A stretch of DNA of 64,000 nt from an uncultured Methanolobus sp. (GCA_963675495.1 OY776215.1:1952001-2016000), one strand, 5' to 3'. Positions 9,972 to 38,405 are shown, counted from the stretch's first letter. The notes: a model not told the origin generated them from the letters alone. Numbers and translations: made by a program.

Positions 9972-11156
9972 TTATTTTGCAGTGGAAACTATCTTAACAA
10001 CATCCCCGTCGTTGAGTTCGTGCTTTTCTCCAAGTCGCATTTTTGTTTTCCCATCCACTGCATAGAGGAATCCTTCACCGATATCAGAATGGATCTTGTA
10101 GGCAAAATCATGGGCATTTGAACCTTTTTTCATGAGGAATGCATCAGGTAGCACTCTTCCATTCTTATCGGTCCATTTTCCTTCATCTTCTACAGGATAG
10201 ACGATTATGAGGTCAAGAAGCTCGAAAACAGCGTTGTTGATACATTTTTGTATGCCTGTGCCATCCATTTTCTGTATAAGGGTGCGTACGTTTTCCAGTC
10301 CTTTTCTCTGGGCTGCGTTGAGTTCTTCAGACTGGATGCTGAAGTCATTGTCTCCGGGTTCATATTTTATGGCCTGGCTCTTAGCTGCTGACCTAAGGGC
10401 AAGCTCTGCTGCCGCACTTGTGGCTACTACTATCTGGTCAAGTGCCTGTAGGTTAGTTACATTCTCCGGTGGCGCAACATCTGTTTTGTTGGCGGCGATT
10501 ATCATTGGTTTGCTCAGAATGCGGACCGCGTCACAGAAACTGATTATATCTTCATCGGACCATTTGGTAAGATGGTTCCTGTCCAGTTTGCATTTGTTAA
10601 GGGCGGCATTGACCTGTGGCTCATCCACTCCTGCCCCGGCAAGCTGGTCTGCAAGTATGTGCTCTATTGAGAGTCCTTCCGCCTGTATCTTGCGTGAGAG
10701 CTTGGTCCAGTTTCTCTTGACGATGCTATAGATCCACATGGTGAGTTCACGGTTGAGAAAATCAATGTCACCAAGTGGGTCGTGGTCTCCAATATCAACC
10801 GGATTACCTTCTATATCAGTGCCGCCTGAGGCATCGATCACGTGGATGATTGCCTGCGCCTGACGAAGATCATCGAGGAAGGTGTTGCCAAGCCCGCGCC
10901 CCTGATGCGCATCTGGTACAAGACCCGCAACGTCTATGAGTTCGATAGGGACGTAACGTATACCATCAGAACAGTTGCCACAGCGCTGATCACGGCTTAC
11001 GCAGGGGCACTCTGCCCTTACGTATGTTACTCCTTTGTTTGCATGAATGGTTGTAAATGGATAATTTGCTATCTCCACGTCTGCCAGTGTTGCAGCCTTG
11101 AAGAATGTGGATTTCCCTGCATTGGGTTTACCTGCAAGTCCTATTGTCATCGACAT
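9972..11156 (-). CDS. ychF: YchF/Ola1-family P-loop NTPase with TGS domain
   Basis: [26 protein letters not shown]-terminal TGS domain. Confidence 0.92.
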
Positions 11157-11289
11157 GATTAGTAATCACTTTTGAAGGATTTAACTGTTATTGATTGCAA
11201 GCCCTGAACCACTCCCTTTCCAAAGCTCAATTTCTCCATTCCATTGATAATCTTTATATTGGATTAATACGTTGGAGAGGGCACATAGC

Positions 11290-11361
11290 GTCTCGGTAGG
11301 GTAGAGGATATCCTTGGGGCTTGCGGAGCCTTAGACCCGAGTTCGATTCTCGGTCGGGACG
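11290..11361 (+). tRNA. tRNA-Arg(GCG), no encoded CCA
   Basis: Acceptor GTCTCGG/TCGGGAC; anticodon stem GGGGC/GCCTT with loop TT-GCG-GA; T-arm CCGAG-TTCGATT-CTCGG. Confidence 0.93.
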
Positions 11362-11638
11362 TAATTTTTTCTTTTCTAATTTTTACGCTATGGTGTTTGC
11401 TTTGCTTGGAATGAATGTTTAACATGTTCTCATAAAGTGGCTTTTCGATGTCGTCAATTTATGAGTGTGATAAAAATCCTATTATTAAACCATGAAGTTG
11501 ATACTACTCTATAAAACATGCCAGATCCTTCCCAATATTATCCTTTGATTAATTGAATTATATCACTATTGGTGAATATTTATTTGATAATTGGCCAACC
11601 CAAAAGCATATTTACACTCAAATTAAGATGCTTTTTAA

Positions 11639-29728: not shown

Positions 29729-30346
29729 ATGAAAATCAATGTTATTTTTTACAGTTTGTACGGCCACAACCATAAAATGGCTGAAGCAGTGGCGCAAGGT
29801 GCCAGGGAAGTGGAAAGTGCAGACGTGGGCCTATACCAGATCCAGGAAACCTTCACACCGGATATCCTGGAAAAAATGGGGGCAACAGAGTCTAAAAAGA
29901 GCTTCGAGCACATCCCCGTTGCAAGCATCGAGAATCTCACTGAAGCAGATGCCATCATTTTTGGTACGCCAACAAGGTTCGGAATGATGACTGCACAGAT
30001 GCGTGCTTTTCTTGACATGACAGGGGGCATCTGGTCAAAGGGTGAGCTCATCGGCAAAGTTGGCAGTGTTTTCACATCGAGCAGCACCCAGCATGGCGGA
30101 CAGGAGTCGACAATACTGAGTTTCCACGCAACCCTGCTGCACCATGGTATGATAATAGTTGGTGTTCCGTATTCAGAAACACGGCAATCTGTTCTCACTG
30201 AGATAACAGGTGGGAGTCCCTATGGTGCTTCGACAGTTGCGGGTAGTGGGCCGGATGAAAGGCATCCCAGTGAGAATGAACTTGGGATTGCGAGGTTTCA
30301 GGGCAGGCATGTAGCGGAGATTGCTAAAAAGTTGGTAGGGGAGTAA
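29729..30346 (+). CDS. wrbA: NAD(P)H:quinone oxidoreductase WrbA
   Basis: [29 protein letters not shown]. Confidence 0.95.
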
Positions 30347-30520
30347 ACCAATCTCAAAACCCGCAATCTTTTCTTTTTTTGTAATTTATCCTTGATTTAA
30401 TAACCTAATTGCTTCGCCTTCTATAACTTCGAACATCTTTGAAGTTTAAGCAAAGTATATACAGTTCTATTCCTAAATCTGTTATAAGAACCAATTATTT
30501 ACAAATCTGGAGTGGTAAAG

Positions 30521-33500
30521 ATGAAATTCACAGGAAAAAATACAGTTTCGTTCATAACTTTAGTATCGATATTTGCAATTCTAATGTCAGGGTGTATTGG
30601 AAGTGATACGGGGGATTCCGGTCTTTCTTCCAGCATAGCAGGTCCGTGTAGTGACCAGTTAGCTTCATCAGATGATGAATTCCTGATACTTGCACCGAAA
30701 ATGCTCTTCTCAGGCGGGGAAAGTTCGGTGACCATGGCGGCTTTCTCGGACAGTCAACCGGTGACTCGCTGCGTTGAATATACTCTCACGGATGAGGACA
30801 ACAATGAGATTGCTCTCCTTGCGGCATCAACTTCAGACTCAGGAAATGTGGTGGCTTCCTTTGAAGTGCCTGATGTTGAAGAGGGCAGCTATGTACTAAA
30901 TGCAAAGCCTTCAGGATTTGATACTGAGTTCAAGGCAACTGTGGAAGTGGTGAATAACAATCCATTGTTCATTGAGACAGATAAGCCGATTTACAAACCG
31001 AGACAGACAATACACGGCAGAATACTTTCCCTGAACAACAATTTGATTCCTGTGGAAGAGGACATCACCGTAGAGATAACAGATGCTAAAGGCATCAAGG
31101 TCTTCAAGGAAGAACTGAGTTCCAACAAATATGGTGTAACTTCATTCGATCTGCCGCTTGCATCAGAACTGAATCTGGGCACATGGAAGATAATCGCAAC
31201 AGCAGGCGATTCTACTTCCAATGTAGACATCCAGGTGGACAAATATGTGCTTCCGAAGTTCGATGTCTCACTGGAAACCCCGCAGGAGTGGTTCCTTGTC
31301 TCTGATGAGATTACAGGTACGGTTTCAGGTAACTACTTCTTTGGCAAGGAAGTTGAGGGTGAGGTGCTTGTGGAAGCTTCACGTTATGTGGGTGAATGGG
31401 AGCAATATGCAAGCTTTTCCGGAACACTTGAAGAAGGAACTGTTGAGTTCGAACTTCCTTCTGTGGAATACGCTGCCGGAACATACGGGGCAGGTGGGCA
31501 AGCCAGCCTTATGCTCAATGTGACGGTTATAGATACTGGAAATCATAGCGAGACTACCAACAAATTGCTTACAATATCCGAATCTCCACTTGTTATCCAG
31601 CTTATACCTGAATCAAGTTCCATAAAACCGGGAATGCCATTGCAGGTGCTTTTGGTTACAAAAGATCCGGGGGGCAATCCGATAGATGCTGAAGTGACAG
31701 TGGAGACTCGAATCAGGGACGAGTCATACGATATCACCAGTGATAAGGAAACAGTAACTACAGAAGGTGGCGTTGCCATGCTGGAGTATAATATTCCAGA
31801 TAATACTAACCACCTATTCATAGACGCCTATGCAGATGATGCAATGGCCAGTGAATCTCTGAATGCCGCCTACTCTCCAACTGCCAGTTTTATACACATC
31901 TCCCAGACAAGCGAAGGTGTGCCGGAACTTGGCGATACGATCTCTTTCCGTGTCTATTCAACAAATCCGGGAACAGTATTCTATGATGTGTTCGCAAACG
32001 GCAGGACGGTATATTCTGCTACCAGTGATGAACCGGATATCAGCATACCTGTGACACCACAGATGAGCCCTCAGGCAAAGGTCGTGGCTTACATGATAAA
32101 CCCAAATAGCGAGGTGTCTGTGGATGTGCTTCCATTCGATGTGGAATTCTCCACACAGGTTGACCTTTCCAGCTCTTTTGACGGTGAGTCAGTTGAGCCA
32201 GAGGATAACGTAACGGTTGATTTTGATGCAGGAAGCCAGTCAATGATAGGTTTCTCCATCGTCGATGAGTCTGTCTATGCTCTCAGTGAAGGCAGGCTTA
32301 ATCTAAAACAGGTTTTCGATGAGCTGGAAAAGCGCTTCATGGAACCAATGGCAGAATCGCATCCATCCTGGTACATGGAAGGTGCTTATGATACATTGGA
32401 AAATGCCGGCATGGTTGTAATGGCATCTCCGGGAATAGAGGTGCCGCGTTCTGAATTGGATGAAGTAAGAGTTGATAATGCCAAATTCGCAGGTTTTGGC
32501 ATGGAAGTAGATGCAGCCATGGATGACATGGTAATGGAAGAAGAAGTTGTTGAGGCACCTATGATGGAAGCTATTCCTACAGAGGAAGCTGCCGATGAGG
32601 ATATGGCCGAAGGCGGTGAGCTTGCAGAAGTTCAACGTGTGCGCCAGTTCTTCCCTGAAACCTGGGTGTGGATGCCTGAGCTACTCACAGATGATGCCGG
32701 TCTTGCAAGCCTTGACCTGACGGCACCGGACAGCATCACCACATGGAGGCTGCATGCAGTTTCATCAGGCTCAGAAGGAATTGGTATTTCAGAATCAAGC
32801 CTGACGGTTTTCCAGGACTTTTTTGTTGATCCGGACCTTCCATACTCTGTGACAAGAGGTGAGGAATTCCCTGTGCAGGTGCAGGTCTACAATTATCTTG
32901 ATACGAAGCAGGACGTTAAACTCACACTCTCAGGTGCTGACTGGTTTGATATCATCGGTGATGATGTAGAGGAAGTAACTGTTGATGCCAACGGTGTGGG
33001 CTATGCCAGTTTCACAATAAGCCCGACAGAAGTTGGTAAGCACATTGTAGAGATTACAGGCCAGACCACGAAGAGGGCGGATGCGGTCAGAAAGGATATG
33101 ATCGTGGAGGCAGAAGGCGCGACCCGTGAGCTAGTTGACAACGGGGTGCTAAGTAATGGTTCGGTTGAACTTGACACAAGCTTGCCAGAGGGCATAGTTC
33201 CTGATTCTGAAAAAGTTCTTGTGAGCTTTACTCCAAGCATAGTTGCACAAAGCATAAGCGGAGTCGATGACCTGCTGGGTATGCCTTACGGATGCGGTGA
33301 GCAGAACATGATGCTCTTCTCAACTGATGTTGAGGTATTGCGCTATCTCAAGGCAACAGGGCAGGATAATCCGGAGGTTAGGGCGAAGGCTGAGATGTAT
33401 ATAATTACTGGTTACCAGCGTGAATTGACATACCGGCACAGTGATGGCTCTTTCTCAGCATTCGGTGAAAGTGATGAGAGTGGCAGTCTCTGGTTAACAT

Positions 33501-34756
33501 CCTTCGTACTATCACAGTTCAGTGCTGCAAGGGATGTGACCACAATTGATGAGAACATTCTCTCTGAAGCGGCGGACTGGGTAGAATCACACCAACAGGA
33601 GGATGGTTCATGGGAGCAGGTCGGCTTTGTGATACACCAGGACATGATGGGTGGTTTGAGCGGTACCTATGCCCTATCGGCATATGTGACCCTTGCACTG
33701 GATGAGTATGGATCTGCAAGTCCTGTTGTCATGGCAAATGCGCAGAAGTACCTTGAGGATAACCTTGGCAGCCAGGATGATCCGTACGCACTTGCAATCG
33801 GGACTCTTGCCCTGCAAAAACTTAACAGCCCATTTGCTGATGAGGCTCTGAACGACCTGCTGGCAATTGCAAAACAGGATGATGATGGCACTTATTGGGG
33901 CTATGGTGACGGAGCAGTCCCATTGCCATACGAGCATGGAGGCTATAGTTACATGGCACCATCAAGCAAGAATGTGGAAACCACTGCATACGCTACACTT
34001 GCTATGATCGAAGCCAAGAACCCCACAGCCATCTCATCATTGAAATGGATATCCGCACAGCGTAATTCCAACGGTGGTTTCTCAAGTACTCAGGATACTG
34101 TTATGGCCTTCAGGGCATTGATGAGTGCAGCAGCATCTGCCGGAAGGGATATCGACGCTACAGTGCATGTGATTGCAGACGGCACCGAAGTTAAGTCAGT
34201 GGAAGTAAACCAGCAGAATTTCGATGTGGTGCAGATAATTGAGATTCCAGAAGGGACATCAGAACTCAAACTTGAAATGGAGGGCACAGGAGACCTGAAC
34301 TACCAGCTTGTCAGGCGCTTCAACGTTATCCTGCCTGATGTCATTGAGCAGAATGAGATAGAGCTTGATGTGCAGTATGATTCCACAGATGTTGCCGTGA
34401 ACGATATCGTTACAGTGAATGCCCGCGTGAAGTACAACGGTATCCGTGGCATTGGTGGCAGCATCACTTCCAGTGGAATGATGATAGTGGACCTCGCGGT
34501 TCCAACAGGTTTCAGTCCAATTTCATCAAGCCTTGAAGTCCTTAAGGAAGAAACCGTGATAACCCGCTACGAAATAGCAGGCAGAAAGGTGATTCTCTAC
34601 ATCGATGACATGCAGCCAGGTGAGGAACTGATCCTTAGTATGCAGGTAAAAGCACTGTTTCCGGTGAAGGCTATTGTTTCGGAGAGCAAGGCTTATTCTT
34701 ACTACAATCCGGAGGTTGTGGCTGAGAGTAAGGGAATGGATATGACAGTTGTTTGA
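30521..34756 (+). CDS. Alpha-2-macroglobulin / thioester-containing protein, lipoprotein
   Basis: Lipobox LMSGC; FIETDKPIYKP, YVLPKF, RQFFPETWVW, PDSITTW, PYGCGEQNM, GGFSSTQDT, YSYYNP. Confidence 0.93.
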   Translation: MKFTGKNTVSFITLVSIFAILMSGCIGSDTGDSGLSSSIAGPCSDQLASSDDEFLILAPKMLFSGGESSVTMAAFSDSQPVTRCVEYTLTDEDNNEIALLAASTSDSGNVVASFEVPDVEEGSYVLNAKPSGFDTEFKATVEVVNNNPLFIETDKPIYKPRQTIHGRILSLNNNLIPVEEDITVEITDAKGIKVFKEELSSNKYGVTSFDLPLASELNLGTWKIIATAGDSTSNVDIQVDKYVLPKFDVSLETPQEWFLVSDEITGTVSGNYFFGKEVEGEVLVEASRYVGEWEQYASFSGTLEEGTVEFELPSVEYAAGTYGAGGQASLMLNVTVIDTGNHSETTNKLLTISESPLVIQLIPESSSIKPGMPLQVLLVTKDPGGNPIDAEVTVETRIRDESYDITSDKETVTTEGGVAMLEYNIPDNTNHLFIDAYADDAMASESLNAAYSPTASFIHISQTSEGVPELGDTISFRVYSTNPGTVFYDVFANGRTVYSATSDEPDISIPVTPQMSPQAKVVAYMINPNSEVSVDVLPFDVEFSTQVDLSSSFDGESVEPEDNVTVDFDAGSQSMIGFSIVDESVYALSEGRLNLKQVFDELEKRFMEPMAESHPSWYMEGAYDTLENAGMVVMASPGIEVPRSELDEVRVDNAKFAGFGMEVDAAMDDMVMEEEVVEAPMMEAIPTEEAADEDMAEGGELAEVQRVRQFFPETWVWMPELLTDDAGLASLDLTAPDSITTWRLHAVSSGSEGIGISESSLTVFQDFFVDPDLPYSVTRGEEFPVQVQVYNYLDTKQDVKLTLSGADWFDIIGDDVEEVTVDANGVGYASFTISPTEVGKHIVEITGQTTKRADAVRKDMIVEAEGATRELVDNGVLSNGSVELDTSLPEGIVPDSEKVLVSFTPSIVAQSISGVDDLLGMPYGCGEQNMMLFSTDVEVLRYLKATGQDNPEVRAKAEMYIITGYQRELTYRHSDGSFSAFGESDESGSLWLTSFVLSQFSAARDVTTIDENILSEAADWVESHQQEDGSWEQVGFVIHQDMMGGLSGTYALSAYVTLALDEYGSASPVVMANAQKYLEDNLGSQDDPYALAIGTLALQKLNSPFADEALNDLLAIAKQDDDGTYWGYGDGAVPLPYEHGGYSYMAPSSKNVETTAYATLAMIEAKNPTAISSLKWISAQRNSNGGFSSTQDTVMAFRALMSAAASAGRDIDATVHVIADGTEVKSVEVNQQNFDVVQIIEIPEGTSELKLEMEGTGDLNYQLVRRFNVILPDVIEQNEIELDVQYDSTDVAVNDIVTVNARVKYNGIRGIGGSITSSGMMIVDLAVPTGFSPISSSLEVLKEETVITRYEIAGRKVILYIDDMQPGEELILSMQVKALFPVKAIVSESKAYSYYNPEVVAESKGMDMTVV

Positions 34757-34869: not shown

Positions 34870-36162
34870 ATGAACATCACACAAATTAAGATCAAGAAAC
34901 TGTTTGATCTATATGACCATGAGATCAAACTGAATTCTAGTGAAAGAATAACTATTATCTATGGACCCAATGGTGTCGGCAAGACTATCATATTGCAGAT
35001 GTTAAGGTCTATTTTCAATACAAAATATGATATCTTCTACAAGGTTCCATTTGAAGAGTTTTCGATCGAGTTTGATAATGGTAATGTGTTATTCCTGAAA
35101 AAAAGGTATAATAAAGACAAAAACCAGGATGAGTTAATTCTTAATTTGAATGGAAATGAGACAACTCAAATTCAGCTCGATTGTATGCCCGATGCAAAAG
35201 CATTTGATAAAATTATACATAATCATCCCAACCTGAAGAAGATAGAAGTAGATGAGTGGCTGGACTTTTCAGATGGGGAAATATTGAATTCCGGGGACGT
35301 TTTGGATCGTTATGATATTCGTTTGCCTGCGCAAAAGAATGGACTTGGTTGGTTTAATGATATCAAAGAGGAAATAAATGTTGATTTCATAGAGACTCAA
35401 AGGCTTATAATACTGAGTAATTCAAGGAAAAAATATCCAACTCCAAAAACATCAATAAAGAAGACAGTTAGTAATTATTCTTCGGAATTGTCTGAAGAAG
35501 TCCAAAGGCAGCTTGCAAAATATGCAACCCTTTCTCAATCGTTAGATAGGTCTTTTCCAATTCGTCTGGCAAAAATGAAAACGGATTTGGATTACACTTA
35601 TCTTGAGCAAGATCTGTCAAAATTAGAGGAAAGAAGAAAAAATCTGATTCAGATCGGGGTTTTGGATGCTGATTACGAATTCGATTATTTGACTGATATC
35701 CCGGAAGTAAATCAGGAAAATGCCCACGTCCTTTCTGTATATATTGAGGATGTTGGGAAAAAACTGGATGTTTTTAATGACCTGACAATGAAATTAGATC
35801 TGTTTGTAAGCATAATTAACAATAGATTCGTGAATAAGCGCCTGTCAGTTAGTAAGGACAAAGGGTTTGTAATTAAAACCTTAAATGAGCGTGAGATCCA
35901 ACCAAGGGATCTTTCTTCCGGTGAGCAGCACGAATTAGTTCTCTATTACGAGCTTTTATTCAAGATCGAACCTGGTTCTCTGATCCTAATTGATGAACCT
36001 GAGATATCACTGCATATCGGATGGCAAAATGAGTTTTTAAATGACCTGATGAAAGTGATAGATCTTGCCGGGTTTGACGTGCTGATAGCGACACATTCTC
36101 CTGACATTATCGGGGACCGCTGGGACTTGACAGTATCATTAGAGGCAAAAGTTGAGAATTAG
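34870..36162 (+). CDS. ABC-type ATPase (AAA_15/AAA_21), PARIS AriA-like
   Basis: GPNGVGKT, LSSGEQ, LILIDEPE, ATHS; long helical insert; no TM partner. Confidence 0.82.
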   Translation: MNITQIKIKKLFDLYDHEIKLNSSERITIIYGPNGVGKTIILQMLRSIFNTKYDIFYKVPFEEFSIEFDNGNVLFLKKRYNKDKNQDELILNLNGNETTQIQLDCMPDAKAFDKIIHNHPNLKKIEVDEWLDFSDGEILNSGDVLDRYDIRLPAQKNGLGWFNDIKEEINVDFIETQRLIILSNSRKKYPTPKTSIKKTVSNYSSELSEEVQRQLAKYATLSQSLDRSFPIRLAKMKTDLDYTYLEQDLSKLEERRKNLIQIGVLDADYEFDYLTDIPEVNQENAHVLSVYIEDVGKKLDVFNDLTMKLDLFVSIINNRFVNKRLSVSKDKGFVIKTLNEREIQPRDLSSGEQHELVLYYELLFKIEPGSLILIDEPEISLHIGWQNEFLNDLMKVIDLAGFDVLIATHSPDIIGDRWDLTVSLEAKVEN

Positions 36163-36170
36163 GTGTTTTT

Positions 36171-37028
36171 GTGAGAGAGCAAATTACATCACATCGCATT
36201 GCAAACCAGGTGAGGATGAGGCGTCAGGATCCTCTGAATTCTATTTTGCTTGTTGAGGGACGTACGGACAAAAGGGTATTTACAGATATCATTGACGGGG
36301 ACTATTGCGATATTGTCTATGCTGTCTATAAGGATAAATTGTTAGCTGCTCTATCAATACTGGAAAAGAGCGGGGAAAAAGGAGTTCTTGGAATAGTGGA
36401 TGCAGATTACTGGCATGTGAACCAAATTAGTCCGCAAAGATACAGTAATAATTTGCTTACCACCGATTCACATGACATAGACACAATGATACTGGCGTCA
36501 CAAGCCCTTGAAAAAATGCTCAATGAGTATGCAACGCAGTTCAAATTGCAATCACTTGGAAGGCCTATCCGGGAAATATTGCTTGAAAGCGGTGCTGTTA
36601 TTGGATATATTAGATGGGCTTCCAGAAAATATAATCTGAACATTGGTTTTAAATTCGTGAAGTTCTACAAATTTGTTGATACAAAAAATTTGAATGTCAA
36701 TACCAACAGGCTATACAAAGAACTGAAAACCAAGTCAAATAACAGGAATATGAATGATGCAGTGGTAAAAAAATATATAAATGGTCTGGTAAAATTGAAT
36801 GAAGATCTATGGAATATCTGCCAGGGCCACGATCTGGTTGAGATCTTAACCATTGGTCTTAAAGAGATATTTGGAAATCATGCCAAAGACAATCTGGACT
36901 CCGATATTGTTTCAAAGAATCTGAGACTGGCTTACAATTTATCGAATTTCATCGATACAAAGCTATATACAAGTATCAAAGAATGGGAAGAAGCAAATTC
37001 TGAATTCAGGATCTTATTAAGGTCATAG
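36171..37028 (+). CDS. DUF4435-like TOPRIM nuclease, PARIS AriB-like
   Basis: LLVEGRTD, GIVDADY (DxD) and QGHD motifs, directly downstream of the ATPase. Confidence 0.78.
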   Translation: MREQITSHRIANQVRMRRQDPLNSILLVEGRTDKRVFTDIIDGDYCDIVYAVYKDKLLAALSILEKSGEKGVLGIVDADYWHVNQISPQRYSNNLLTTDSHDIDTMILASQALEKMLNEYATQFKLQSLGRPIREILLESGAVIGYIRWASRKYNLNIGFKFVKFYKFVDTKNLNVNTNRLYKELKTKSNNRNMNDAVVKKYINGLVKLNEDLWNICQGHDLVEILTIGLKEIFGNHAKDNLDSDIVSKNLRLAYNLSNFIDTKLYTSIKEWEEANSEFRILLRS

Positions 37029-37060
37029 TTTTTTAATGGTAGTTTTAGGTGTGTGGTGAA

Positions 37061-37657
37061 ATGGATTTCAGATTGATCTTTATAATCGGATTTGCAGGTT
37101 TTGTCGTGACAGTCATCCTGCTGGCAATTATTTTTACTCTTCTCAATGAGAAGAAGCGAGCAAAGAACCTGAATGAACAGGCCAGAGAACTTGGTTTTCA
37201 ACAGGCTTCAAAGGATGTTGTCGAAAACCTTGGTTTTGAACAGACCCGACTTGGTAACAAACAAAAAGTATACAATGTGTTCACTGGTACTTTCAACGGA
37301 CTACCGGTAATTTCCTTTGATTTGAACATCACAATTGGCAACCTGGGCTATGGAACAGGAACATCTCATGGTAACACATTCAAGTCATCTGGTTTCATTT
37401 TTAAGAGAGATGCTCCTGTTTTTGAATTGCAGCCACGCTCTCCTCTCTCCCGAAATACATATAATGAACATTTTTCCCTTAAAGGGGATGACTCTTTTAT
37501 GAACGATATCCTTGCACAAAGCGTAGGGAAAAATTATGCTATTGAATCTATAGGGACACATGTACTTTTCGTTCCTTCGGGAAAACGTATCGTGAATATG
37601 GGTGAAGAACTGAAGGCAGCTTATGAAATATTGCGGGAAATTGCTTCAAAACAGTAG
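37061..37657 (+). CDS. Membrane-anchored hypothetical protein
   Basis: N-terminal TM helix then soluble domain; GGTGA RBS. Confidence 0.65.
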   Translation: MDFRLIFIIGFAGFVVTVILLAIIFTLLNEKKRAKNLNEQARELGFQQASKDVVENLGFEQTRLGNKQKVYNVFTGTFNGLPVISFDLNITIGNLGYGTGTSHGNTFKSSGFIFKRDAPVFELQPRSPLSRNTYNEHFSLKGDDSFMNDILAQSVGKNYAIESIGTHVLFVPSGKRIVNMGEELKAAYEILREIASKQ

Positions 37658-37916
37658 GTATACATTTAATTCAAATCCAAATACTGCTAATTGATTTTTG
37701 GAAGAGTTCAATGAACAAATATCTGAAGATGGTCCTTTTTGGACGAATTGTTTGGTTGGTTACCTGTTGTTCGGTGGATTCACTTGCAATGAAGATAAAG
37801 TGAATTATGAGTTTCAGAAAGGCGGGAATAAGATGATGGGGATTTTCAGGGATCAGCTTCGCTCGTCATGTCTGCTTTTCCTTCTTAAGAATGAAAATGA
37901 TTGAAAAAGATTGTAT

Positions 37917-38405
37917 TTAACCGTTCTTTGATTCCACTCTTGTTAGTACACTTAAGGTCACTGCATTCTCTTCGGCAATTGCACCTTCAATGCGGTCTAC
38001 AAGCAGTCTGAATGCGCTGTCTTTATCCAGTTCAGAGTAATCTCCAATTCCATGGACAAAAAGTTGCTTTTGGGTTTCCAGGTATTGCTCTGTTGACCTA
38101 TAGTTCTTCCACTGTTCTCTATAATGATAGATTCCTTCTAAGGCTATTGCAAGCGCTACTGCAATTCCTATTATCGTTACGGAAAGCTTTGCAATATCCA
38201 CATTCCAATTTACGATTGGCGCGATGATAGATACATTGTTGATGACAGGTATCAAAACAGCTCCAGTTGCCGCGACAACTTGAGTTTGTTGGTACCTTTT
38301 CTTCATTTTCACGGACTTGTTGTCATACCAAGATCTGTATTGCTCGAGTCTGTTCTCCAGATATTGTTCGGCAGTACTTTGAACATCGTCTGTTTCATCA
38401 ACCAT
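37917..38405 (-). CDS. DUF4231 / SLATT-domain two-TM protein
   Basis: Y...RL..Y..WYD.KS, two TM helices, W..YRSTEQYL, LVDRIE..I..EN. Confidence 0.8.
   Translation of the reverse strand: MVDETDDVQSTAEQYLENRLEQYRSWYDNKSVKMKKRYQQTQVVAATGAVLIPVINNVSIIAPIVNWNVDIAKLSVTIIGIAVALAIALEGIYHYREQWKNYRSTEQYLETQKQLFVHGIGDYSELDKDSAFRLLVDRIEGAIAEENAVTLSVLTRVESKNG

Follow-up and report, generated by a model that had tools for sequence, protein, structure and literature searches.

The closest described systems are animal proteins of the alpha-macroglobulin family (A2MF). A2ML1, a plain monomeric protease inhibitor, requires covalent conjugation for inhibition and uses a nearby His in its thioester chemistry, and such a His in C3, C4B and A2ML1 permits reaction with hydroxyls; a plug (BR-C) and channel elements have been named as the trigger, with Tyr214-Pro217 of A2ML1 described (Nielsen 2022). 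PMC12927315 presents CD109 as a further monomeric inhibitor, whose inhibition depends on conjugation. Bacterial YfhM and Salmonella A2M are likewise monomeric and inhibit proteases in a conjugation-dependent manner, with MG-ring mechanics distinct from those of animal A2MFs; bacterial A2Ms are regarded as structurally distinct from animal ones and as animal-derived by horizontal transfer, and the ancestral family member was inferred to be CD109-like and to have arisen within animals (Nielsen 2022). In archaea, a homolog in Methanolobus psychrophilus has already been named (Makarova 2021), and relatives are annotated as 'alpha-2-macroglobulin family protein' or, by JGI, as 'CD109 antigen', so that the expectation of existing A2M annotations in a first, sequence-only reading of the DNA studied here proved correct.

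Architecture of a Methanolobus thioester protein

The protein is encoded in a 64,000-nucleotide stretch of DNA (GCA_963675495.1 OY776215.1:1952001-2016000), hereafter the window, whose source organism is a Methanolobus, a methane-producing archaeon, as shown by 95% identity of the protein to one from Methanolobus sp. ZRKC5. The coding sequence of this CD109/A2M-like thioester protein (P0001) runs from an ATG at 30521 to 34756 on the plus strand, as do all features below, and specifies 1411 aa; a longer version of the open reading frame (30512-34756, plus strand) opens with GTG at 30512 and gives 1414 aa. Its N-terminus, MKFTGKNTVSFITLVSIFAILMSGC, reads as a signal peptide (30521-30595) with a lipobox-like LMSGC, in which Cys25 is the predicted lipid-anchored residue, consistent with the 1411-aa lipoprotein of the first reading. 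Only four Cys are present, at positions 25, 43, 84 and 925. By regular expression, 78 of 113 full-length homologs have a lipobox-like motif within the first 45 aa, and the other 35 lack one; the lipobox is the predicted anchor type of Methanosarcinaceae, one group of homologs, with ANME-2 records among them, has an N-terminal TM segment or a signal without Cys, and some others have a C-terminal TM segment.

The order of Pfam domains is of the animal type: MG2 (residues 149-239, 30965-31237; PF01835, 2.9e-21), MG3, MG4, the bait-region domain A2M_BRD (MG6/BRD, residues 459-588, 31895-32284; PF07703, 1.1e-22), A2M (MG7, residues 714-803, 32660-32929; PF00207, 1.1e-28), the thioester domain TED_complement (TED, residues 907-1201, 33239-34123; PF07678, 1.5e-77) and the receptor-binding-type A2M_recep (MG8, residues 1317-1400, 34469-34720; PF07677, 2.5e-14), directly past which the chain terminates. 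The E value of TED_complement, together with six more A2M-family domains in canonical order, excludes a chance match. The thioester motif GCGEQ (residues 924-928, 33290-33304; Cys925, codon at 33293, and Gln928) is intact and kept in all archaeal homologs examined, and GFVIHQDMMGG places His1039 (33635-33637) 114 residues past Cys925, both as first read; ETDKPIYKP, YVLPKF, PDSITTW, GGFSSTQDT and RQFFPETW, listed in the same reading, were all found in the protein.

In HMMER alignments, VIHQDMMGG matches VIHRSMQGG of C4-B, VLDRSMQGG of C4A, VWHKDMQGG of TEP1 and VIHSELQGG of CD109, so that His1039 is homologous to the reactivity-defining His of C4B, CD109 and TEP1; at this position C4A has Asp and human A2M (LLNNAIKGG) has Asn. 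Judged by aligned position, His1039 falls within the His-type class of C3, C4B, CD109, A2ML1 and TEP1. It had been put forward as a distinguishing C3-like feature, a view that the census of homologs did not support: 109 of 109 close homologs have His at the position, as do 42 of 46 clade representatives. His is thus what the clade has by default, and as it is also found in the inhibitors A2ML1 and CD109, it is not special to this protein.

The low-complexity acidic stretch noted at the outset corresponds to residues 631-702 (32411-32626), a Met/Ala-rich, bait-like region with 29% D+E, 4% K+R and 12.5% Met. Conservation along the protein is lowest here (0.37 and 0.26 in 30-aa windows of residues 631-690); the stretch is markedly less conserved than the remainder in 11 of 15 homologs compared (50% versus 92% in P0006, for example), and changes faster than the remaining protein among near relatives; pLDDT below 50 across residues 647-700 predicts disorder. 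These properties agree with the exposed, variable bait that A2MF proteins carry as an insertion in MG6. The trigger elements are conserved: RQFFP (32642-32656), aligned with VRQYFPETW of A2ML1 and VRKYFPETW of human A2M, and YVLPKF (residues 242-247, 31244-31261) in the MG2-MG3 linker are each present in 116 of 120 homologs, the equivalence of the latter to the A2ML1 channel resting on motif and position, without a displayed alignment. At the sequence level, the residues of the animal plug-in-channel trigger, R-x-Y/F-F-P and YVLP, are present in this archaeal protein.

Likeness to animal A2M, CD109 and complement proteins

Sequence searches of the PDB returned human A2M (2.8e-124), CD109 (5.6e-114) and A2ML1 (1.6e-107) as best matches, and CD109 ranked first (1.6e-55) when the TED was used by itself; bit scores were 419 for human A2M, 287 for C4B and 259 for C3, and identity to metazoan representatives was 36-38% over the C-terminal 712 aa. 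An AF2 model of residues 212-1411 (pLDDT 77.4; pTM 0.52, so that the inter-domain arrangement is moderately trusted), a structure prediction having been suggested with the first reading, best matched native CD109 (8s3o; TMq 0.55, E 8.7e-76), followed by native A2ML1 and the native A2M monomer, both at 0.54. Full-length native CD109, A2ML1, A2M, TEP1 and C5 were all matched, and activated A2MF forms less well (TMq 0.25-0.33). From sequence and model, the protein is a member of the A2MF superfamily with animal-type architecture.

Human CD109 (8s3o native, 9fx3 active) shares with it the length class of about 1400 aa, the domain order, GCGEQ, the homologous His and a bait, at 24% identity over the structural alignment. 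Both are tethered to the membrane by lipid, predicted in the archaeal case, but CD109 is anchored by a C-terminal GPI on MG8 and is shed upon activation, whereas the archaeal anchor would be the N-terminal lipobox Cys25. Membership of the metazoan CD109 subfamily was rejected on these grounds, the protein having an N-terminal lipobox-like motif in place of a C-terminal GPI and branching with archaeal sequences (a clade of 12 rows, SH-aLRT 98), separately from the clade that contains the metazoan sequences. A2ML1 (7q1y) shares the RQ[Y/F]FP plug, the YVLP channel motif, the His and the native fold, but is secreted and soluble, with a bait unrelated in sequence. C3, C4B and mosquito TEP1 have the thioester, the His and the MG/CUB/TED/MG8 scaffold in common with it, but complement C3 and C4B carry a convertase site where the archaeal protein has its bait, and score lower than A2M. 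Neither ANATO nor NTR/C345C is among the Pfam matches at E <= 0.01 and the chain stops past MG8; membership of complement C3/C4/C5 was rejected accordingly.

Proposed function

We consider it probable, by sequence, model and analogy, that the protein is a lipid-anchored and probably monomeric, conjugation-dependent trap for foreign proteases. What was computed here is the architecture, the motifs and how far they are conserved, the variability and disorder of the bait, the native-like fold, the status as a core gene and the distribution; thioester formation, triggering by proteases, conjugation, the monomeric state and the physiological role would follow by homology to A2ML1 and CD109. The native protein would sit on the outside of the cytoplasmic membrane of Methanolobus, under the S-layer, and conceal the Cys925-Gln928 thioester at the TED-MG8 interface until a foreign endopeptidase cleaves the exposed, disordered and fast-evolving bait (about residues 631-702). 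Cleavage might free the RQFFP plug from its channel, which the YVLPKF linker lines, and cause a conformational change, upon which His1039 could attack the exposed thioester to form an acyl-imidazole; reaction of the latter with nearby hydroxyl or amine groups would leave the attacking protease covalently bound and sterically blocked. An N-terminal anchor would keep the complex on the cell, whereas CD109 is released from its GPI-anchored MG8. The scarcity of K and R in the bait would limit the range of proteases able to trigger the trap.

The gene is single-copy in its genome, lies within a conserved synteny, WrbA-A2M-[variable]-MutS, and is present in 13 of 13 other genomes of Methanolobus and 7 of 7 of a sister genus, which points to a maintained, housekeeping-type function.

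A complement-like or TEP1-like opsonin, in which the proteolytically activated thioester would tag glycosylated surfaces of foreign origin (virions or the cells of predators and competitors, for example) rather than a protease, and so act as an archaeal innate-immune effector, seems unlikely. Insect TEPs, which share this architecture, are considered complement-like proteins and not inhibitors (Nielsen 2022), and as they have all the trap-type features, sequence alone cannot tell a trap from an opsonin; the hydroxyl reactivity associated with a His homologous to that of C4B and TEP1 would suit such a role, and complement-like systems in archaea have been speculated on (Makarova 2021). The His is, however, shared with inhibitors and with most of the clade, the ANATO and NTR/C345C domains of complement are missing, no convertase-like partner was found, no neighbour gene is conserved beyond Methanosarcinaceae, and the predicted N-terminal membrane tether would prevent diffusion to targets. 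Just downstream lie a PARIS pair (AriA/AriB) and a SLATT-domain gene, which might seem to favour a defence function, but AriA/AriB, the only defence genes nearby, are an incidental insertion that, besides the window, just 1 of the 50 related loci listed contains, and PADLOC gave no match for the thioester protein itself. There is no evidence at present for a complement-like role, and the trap for glycosylated attackers or virions, with its part in innate immunity, that the sequence-only reading had proposed is left unsupported.

A covalent adhesin or matrix cross-linker, whose thioester would fix the cell to partner cells, the S-layer or the extracellular matrix, for instance in ANME-2 consortia, appears very doubtful. 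Members are frequent elsewhere in Methanosarcinales, with 15 of 20 and 23 of 27 genomes in the two other families sampled, many ANME-2 records have one, planctomycete relatives bear dockerin-like C-terminal tails and one Acidobacteriota form has a TIG domain. Nevertheless, the full protease-triggered apparatus of bait, plug and channel is kept and its bait evolves fast, neither of which a constitutive adhesin would need, and free-living Methanolobus and Methanococcoides retain the gene in all genomes sampled.

Bacterial relatives and the origin of the family

That the protein is an ordinary YfhM/ECAM-like A2M recently acquired from bacteria is scarcely credible, even though the M. psychrophilus protein was described as 'closely related to bacterial alpha2-macroglobulin homologs' and as probably acquired by HGT (Makarova 2021). 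The G+C content of the gene (0.45-0.49, with flanks at about 0.40) and common bacterial relatives at 42-49% identity speak for a bacterial source; the latter also mean that the protein, although from an archaeal organism as first read, is not uniquely archaeal. YfhM has 1653 aa, the domains bMG1, bMG2, bMG3, bMG5, bMG6 and bMG10, a thioester of the CxEQ form (GCLEQ) and a paired pbpC. None of these six domains was found by Pfam in the archaeal protein, the best BLASTP segments against E. coli YfhM reached no more than 48 and 33 bits, the C-terminal 712 aa, used as query in a local phmmer search, did not match YfhM, and ECAM and Sa-A2M took ranks 44-45 among the fold matches, with 13-14% identity, so that sequence and fold agree with the earlier view that the protein is closer to animal CD109/TEP than to YfhM. 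One likeness lies in ECAM, an N-terminally anchored lipoprotein of the cytoplasmic membrane. The reported absence of pbpC extends beyond the gene neighbours, among which there is no PBP, to the whole 2.87-Mb genome, where PF00912 was unmatched (10 of 14 control genomes were matched). In the tree the protein has its place in the archaeal clade, and synteny in Methanolobus and Methanococcoides makes any transfer older than these genera. The YfhM type is refuted, and an ancient exchange with bacteria bearing the CD109-like form may have occurred.

The protein's own family is a prokaryotic CD109-like (GCGEQ) clade that shares its length class, Pfam set, GCGEQ, His, ETDKPIY and RQFFPETW, and comprises Methanosarcinales, Methanoperedens, Altiarchaeales, Hadarchaeota, DPANN, Planctomycetota, Hydrogenedentota, Omnitrophota, Nitrospirota and Chloroflexota. 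Relatives are encoded in at least 570 stretches of the species-genome collection (archaea, Planctomycetota, Chloroflexota and others). The protein is real and animal-like, but it belongs to a family that already has annotations and is widespread among the archaea and bacteria of sediments.

In the outgroup-rooted tree, a 17-row clade with all five named metazoan sequences adjoins a Chloroflexota-type group within prokaryotic diversity (SH-aLRT 99), with 12 of its 17 rows unnamed, C3 and insect TEP sequences left out and a single bacterial outgroup as root; an AU test with prokaryotes constrained to one clade gave p = 0.0485 for a group named after the tree was seen. Based on this nesting and on the complete trigger motifs of the archaeal proteins, we tentatively raise the possibility that archaeal and bacterial CD109-like proteins are not late animal imports and instead gave rise to the animal TEP/complement family, through transfer from a prokaryote to an early metazoan, and that the ancestral function was that of a membrane-tethered, His-assisted covalent protease trap.

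A large prokaryotic clade has the animal-type architecture, trigger motifs and His, in Methanolobus as a core and syntenic gene, and the origin of the complement/TEP family becomes testable using prokaryotic sequences. The almost Cys-free and presumably non-glycosylated protein offers a tractable CD109/A2ML1-like system for mechanistic experiments, and in archaea bounded only by an S-layer it would be a first candidate for a protease trap that protects the envelope.

Domain organisation and kinship with animal A2M proteins

The open reading frame at 30512..34756 (+) encodes 1411 residues counted from the ATG at 30521, and all the features listed in the sequence-only reading were found in it, namely the motifs ETDKPIYKP, YVLPKF (residues 242-247), PDSITTW and GGFSSTQDT, a lipobox-like LMSGC read from the N-terminal sequence (Cys25), an acidic stretch N-terminal to RQFFPETW, the thioester motif GCGEQ (Cys925, codon 33293) and GFVIHQDMMGG, in which His1039 (codon 33635) lies 114 residues past Cys925. 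Pfam domains follow the canonical order, with the macroglobulin domain MG2 (residues 149-239), MG3 and MG4 leading to the bait-region domain (459-588), A2M/MG7 (714-803), the thioester domain TED_complement (TED; 907-1201, E 1.5e-77) and receptor-binding/MG8 (1317-1400). No NCBIfam model covers the protein; the search returned only two sub-threshold squalene-cyclase matches, which we interpret as an echo of the alpha/alpha toroid that the TED forms. Cys occurs only four times (residues 25, 43, 84 and 925), and disulfides therefore play no part. The G+C content of the gene (0.451 and 0.489 in the 2-kb windows over 30001-34000) is raised relative to flanks of about 0.39-0.40, which could be due to amino-acid composition or to an old foreign origin.

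The best 60 of 80 sequence matches in the PDB were all eukaryotic, including human A2M (2.8e-124, 419 bits), CD109 (5.6e-114), A2ML1 (1.6e-107), frog A2M, C4B, TEP1 and C3, and in a search with the TED only all 51 matches were eukaryotic, with CD109 at the top. An AlphaFold2 model of residues 212-1411, built from a 49-row alignment (pLDDT 77.4, pTM 0.52, low confidence at residues 586-620 and 647-700), matched native CD109 (TMq 0.55), native A2ML1 (0.54), the native A2M monomer (0.54) and TEP1 (0.50), as against TMq 0.25-0.33 for protease- or methylamine-activated forms. The protein thus belongs to the animal type of the family, being CD109/A2ML1-like, and the model shows it in its native, thioester-shielded conformation. 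The proposal that it stands closer to animal CD109/TEP proteins than to E. coli YfhM (ECAM) thus holds. A bacterial A2M of the YfhM type can be dismissed, given that BLASTP against the K-12 YfhM record gave segments of 48 and 33 bits only, that the YfhM Pfam set (bMG1, bMG2, bMG3, bMG5, bMG6, bMG10 and CUB_A2MG) is not shared by the archaeal protein, and that ECAM and Salmonella A2M rank 44-45 among the fold matches with 13-14% identity. YfhM was also not matched when the C-terminal 712 residues were used for a local phmmer search.

Conserved histidine, bait and predicted membrane anchoring

In HMMER alignments the query VIHQDMMGG is paired with VIHRSMQGG of C4-B, VLDRSMQGG of C4A, VWHKDMQGG of TEP1, VIHSELQGG of CD109 and LLNNAIKGG of human A2M, which shows that the position of His1039 is homologous to that of the residue defining reactivity in the family. 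The aligned column is His in all 109 close archaeal homologs and in 42 of 46 representatives carrying GCGEQ (Tyr, Asp, Asp and Ser in the others), and in 38 of 94 rows of the type with the motif variant GCFEQ; the clade commonly has His here. According to Nielsen 2022 (PMC9156758), A2ML1, a monomeric protease inhibitor, reacts with both amines and hydroxyls via such a His, like C3 and C4B. CD109 carries His in the aligned column and is described as a monomeric, GPI-anchored inhibitor whose action requires conjugation (PMC12927315). Since these two inhibitors bear such a His, the residue would support hydroxyl-capable chemistry and gives no pointer to a complement-like role. The C3/C4B-type His put forward from sequence is therefore present and in the homologous column, but it does not stand as a complement-like hallmark, being the default of the clade and shared with A2ML1 and CD109.

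The trigger motifs are also those of animal proteins. The archaeal R708-Q-F-F-P712 aligns with RQYFP of A2ML1 and RKYFP of human A2M, a plug-in-channel trigger is described in Nielsen 2022 (PMC9156758), and of 120 listed homologs 116 have RQFFP and 116 have YVLPKF. The bait (residues 631-702) is rich in Asp+Glu (29%) and Met (12.5%), with 4% Lys+Arg. Measured as mean identity to the window residue over the 113 full-length homologs among the 120, conservation is lowest in the bait (0.37 and 0.26 in two 30-residue windows over 631-690), most other residues lying at 0.6-0.9 except for the N-terminal 60, residues 391-450 (0.43 and 0.38) and 1111-1140 (0.50). It was also the faster-diverging part among near relatives, as in the homolog P0006 (bait 50% vs 91-92% for the rest), with no excess divergence in three out of the four closest relatives in the comparison and the opposite pattern in P0007 from Methanolobus sp. 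ZRKC4 (bait 96%, rest 85-89%), which may reflect recombination or exchange of a bait cassette between strains. Other relatives about 90% identical overall have baits (32411-32620) that are only 50-69% identical, as against 96% in P0007.

Anchoring varies across the clade. Of the 113 full-length homologs, 78 show a lipobox-like motif; a group including ANME-2 records has an N-terminal hydrophobic segment lacking Cys, one archaeal group has a transmembrane segment at the C-terminus, and planctomycete-type forms (P0133, P0130 and P0121) carry dockerin-like Asp-rich repeats as C-terminal tails. All of these anchor variants are consistent with a surface location. A 1905-residue protein from Acidobacteriota (P0136) has a TIG domain and about 500 further residues at its C-terminal end.

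Distribution and gene neighbourhood

The nearest proteins are from Methanolobus (95% identity in sp. ZRKC5, 76% in M. psychrophilus R15, AFV24188.1), and the gene is single-copy in a complete, single-contig genome of 2.87 Mb. It was found in 61 of 151 sampled genomes of the order, including all 13 other genomes of the genus, all 7 of a sister genus, and 15 of 20 and 23 of 27 genomes of two further families; one genus of the same family (0/13) and a fourth family (1/48) mark the other extreme. In two related loci, one from Methanolobus halotolerans and one from the Methanolobus MAG Soudan_28 (L023 and L025), the ortholog lies in two ORFs, which could stem from a frameshift, from decay into a pseudogene or from faulty assembly; the M. 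halotolerans protein on record (P0056) has only 1069 residues.

Gene order was read in 50 related loci, the first of a set of 80. Methanolobus loci repeatedly show the arrangement ArsP-ModE-TM131-WrbA-A2M, with WrbA upstream in 16 of those 50 loci, and MutS lies 3' of the gene in 19 of them, including Methanococcoides; given this synteny, any transfer would be older than Methanolobus and Methanococcoides. What fills the gap from the gene to MutS differs between loci. The window has a PARIS-type pair, AriA/AriB, there at 34870-37028 (+), consisting of an AriA-like ABC/AAA_15 ATPase of 430 aa (PADLOC AriA, 3.2e-26) and AriB of 285 aa (1.2e-19), followed by an unassigned 202-aa ORF (37049-37657, +) and a two-TM DUF4231/SLATT_1 gene (37917-38405, -). 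Other Methanolobus loci have a 135-aa membrane ORF and a 227-aa ORF in the gap (the latter, for example, at 10804-11487 of locus L002). The former occurs in 12 loci and is missing from the window, and a 31-aa remnant of the latter (58% identity) remains at 37752-37844; presumably both were displaced by the PARIS insertion. The gap looks like an insertion hot spot, and the PARIS pair was rejected as a partner, as only L003 among the first 50 of 80 loci shares AriA/AriB.

When all ORFs within 4 kb were clustered across the 80 loci, no conserved partner gene emerged beyond Methanosarcinaceae synteny, and no flanking gene family was shared with the more distant archaeal or bacterial loci. The absence of pbpC, noted from the sequence, extends to the whole 2.87-Mb genome, in which no PBP-type transglycosylase was found. 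The gene therefore stands on its own as a core gene and sits neither in a defence island nor in an operon with a partner.

A prokaryotic CD109-like clade and its putative function

A HMMER search with residues 700-1411 against 1.84 billion cluster representatives gave 12,155 matches at E <= 0.001, and at least 570 stretches (of 598 pattern-matched) were confirmed in a species-genome collection. The 140 near-full-coverage rows drawn from 150 listed representatives and six homologs split in two with support 100, into 46 GCGEQ rows and 94 rows of longer proteins (typically 1500-1900 aa) with GCFEQ or, in a few, GCMEQ or GCLEQ, the sole name obtained in this second group being JGI's 'uncharacterized protein YfaS' for P0148. 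This GCFEQ clade (among P0148-P0268) is distinct from the YfhM type; P0149, the sole member scanned, has an animal-type Pfam set including TED_complement and A2M_recep, in which some 250 aa separate the bait-region domain from MG7. Going by the names obtained for representatives and for loci in species genomes, the GCGEQ group includes Methanosarcinales (including ANME-2, Ca. Methanogaster and Ca. Methanoperedens), other archaea (Altiarchaeales, Hadarchaeota, Micrarchaeota, Nanoarchaeia and Undinarchaeales), bacteria at 42-49% identity (Pirellulales, Sedimentisphaerales, Phycisphaerae, Hydrogenedentota, Omnitrophota, Nitrospirales, Dehalococcoidia and Acidobacteriota) and animals at 36-38% (Trichoplax CD109, Ptychodera CD109-like, amphioxus A2M, a mussel protein and fish CD109). 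The protein thus belongs to a CD109-like clade that is widespread among prokaryotes and is no archaeal singularity.

In an IQ-TREE 'quick' tree (LG+C20 PMSF) of 75 rows, built without C3 and insect TEPs and rooted on 10 GCFEQ rows, an archaeal clade of 12 rows (SH-aLRT 98) unites the protein with Methanoperedens, Nanoarchaeia and Altiarchaeales. Hadarchaeota group with a planctomycete-type bacterial clade (support 89), and a 17-row clade with all five named animal sequences, names being available for 5 of its 17 rows, joins Dehalococcoidia-type proteins (support 99). Holding the 48 prokaryotic GCGEQ rows together cost 43.4 log-likelihood units (p-AU 0.0485); this group was defined after the tree had been seen, so we do not count the test of prokaryote monophyly as decisive. 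On the whole evidence the protein thus does not nest within ordinary bacterial A2Ms of the YfhM type.

On homology, the reading with the best support is that of a CD109/A2ML1-type protease trap, tethered by lipid to the surface of the archaeal cell and dependent on conjugation, in which cleavage of the bait would lead to covalent capture of the protease. YfhM in the E. coli periplasm would be a functional analogue of such a trap, although of a different structural lineage. A complement-like or antiviral role survives on sequence because insect TEPs share the scaffold with the archaeal protein, but it finds no positive support: there are no partner genes and no complement-specific domains, PADLOC does not match the protein, and the adjacency of defence genes is incidental. 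The suggestion of an innate-immunity protein directed at attackers such as virions is therefore unsupported, and we favour the protease trap.

As anticipated, relatives already carry A2M-family names in databases ('alpha-2-macroglobulin family protein', 'CD109 antigen' and, for M. burtonii Q12VC6, 'Protease inhibitor, alpha(2)-macroglobulin-like protein'). Makarova 2021 (PMC8416519) reports 24 archaeal genomes that encode TED proteins with CxEQ, and describes the Methanolobus psychrophilus protein WP_015053894.1 as a close relative of bacterial homologs that was probably acquired by HGT; the sole M. psychrophilus match that we found is P0029 (AFV24188.1), and the 27 archaeal TED proteins in the supplementary tables of that study may include relatives of the present protein. 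Our literature search, which covered main texts outside subscription journals, found no paper characterising an archaeal member or describing the clade as animal (CD109-like) type with animal trigger motifs, and nothing on prokaryotic CD109-like proteins. Nielsen 2022 (PMC9156758) places the origin of animal TEPs within animals, and the relation of the prokaryotic CD109-like clade to that origin is worth pursuing.
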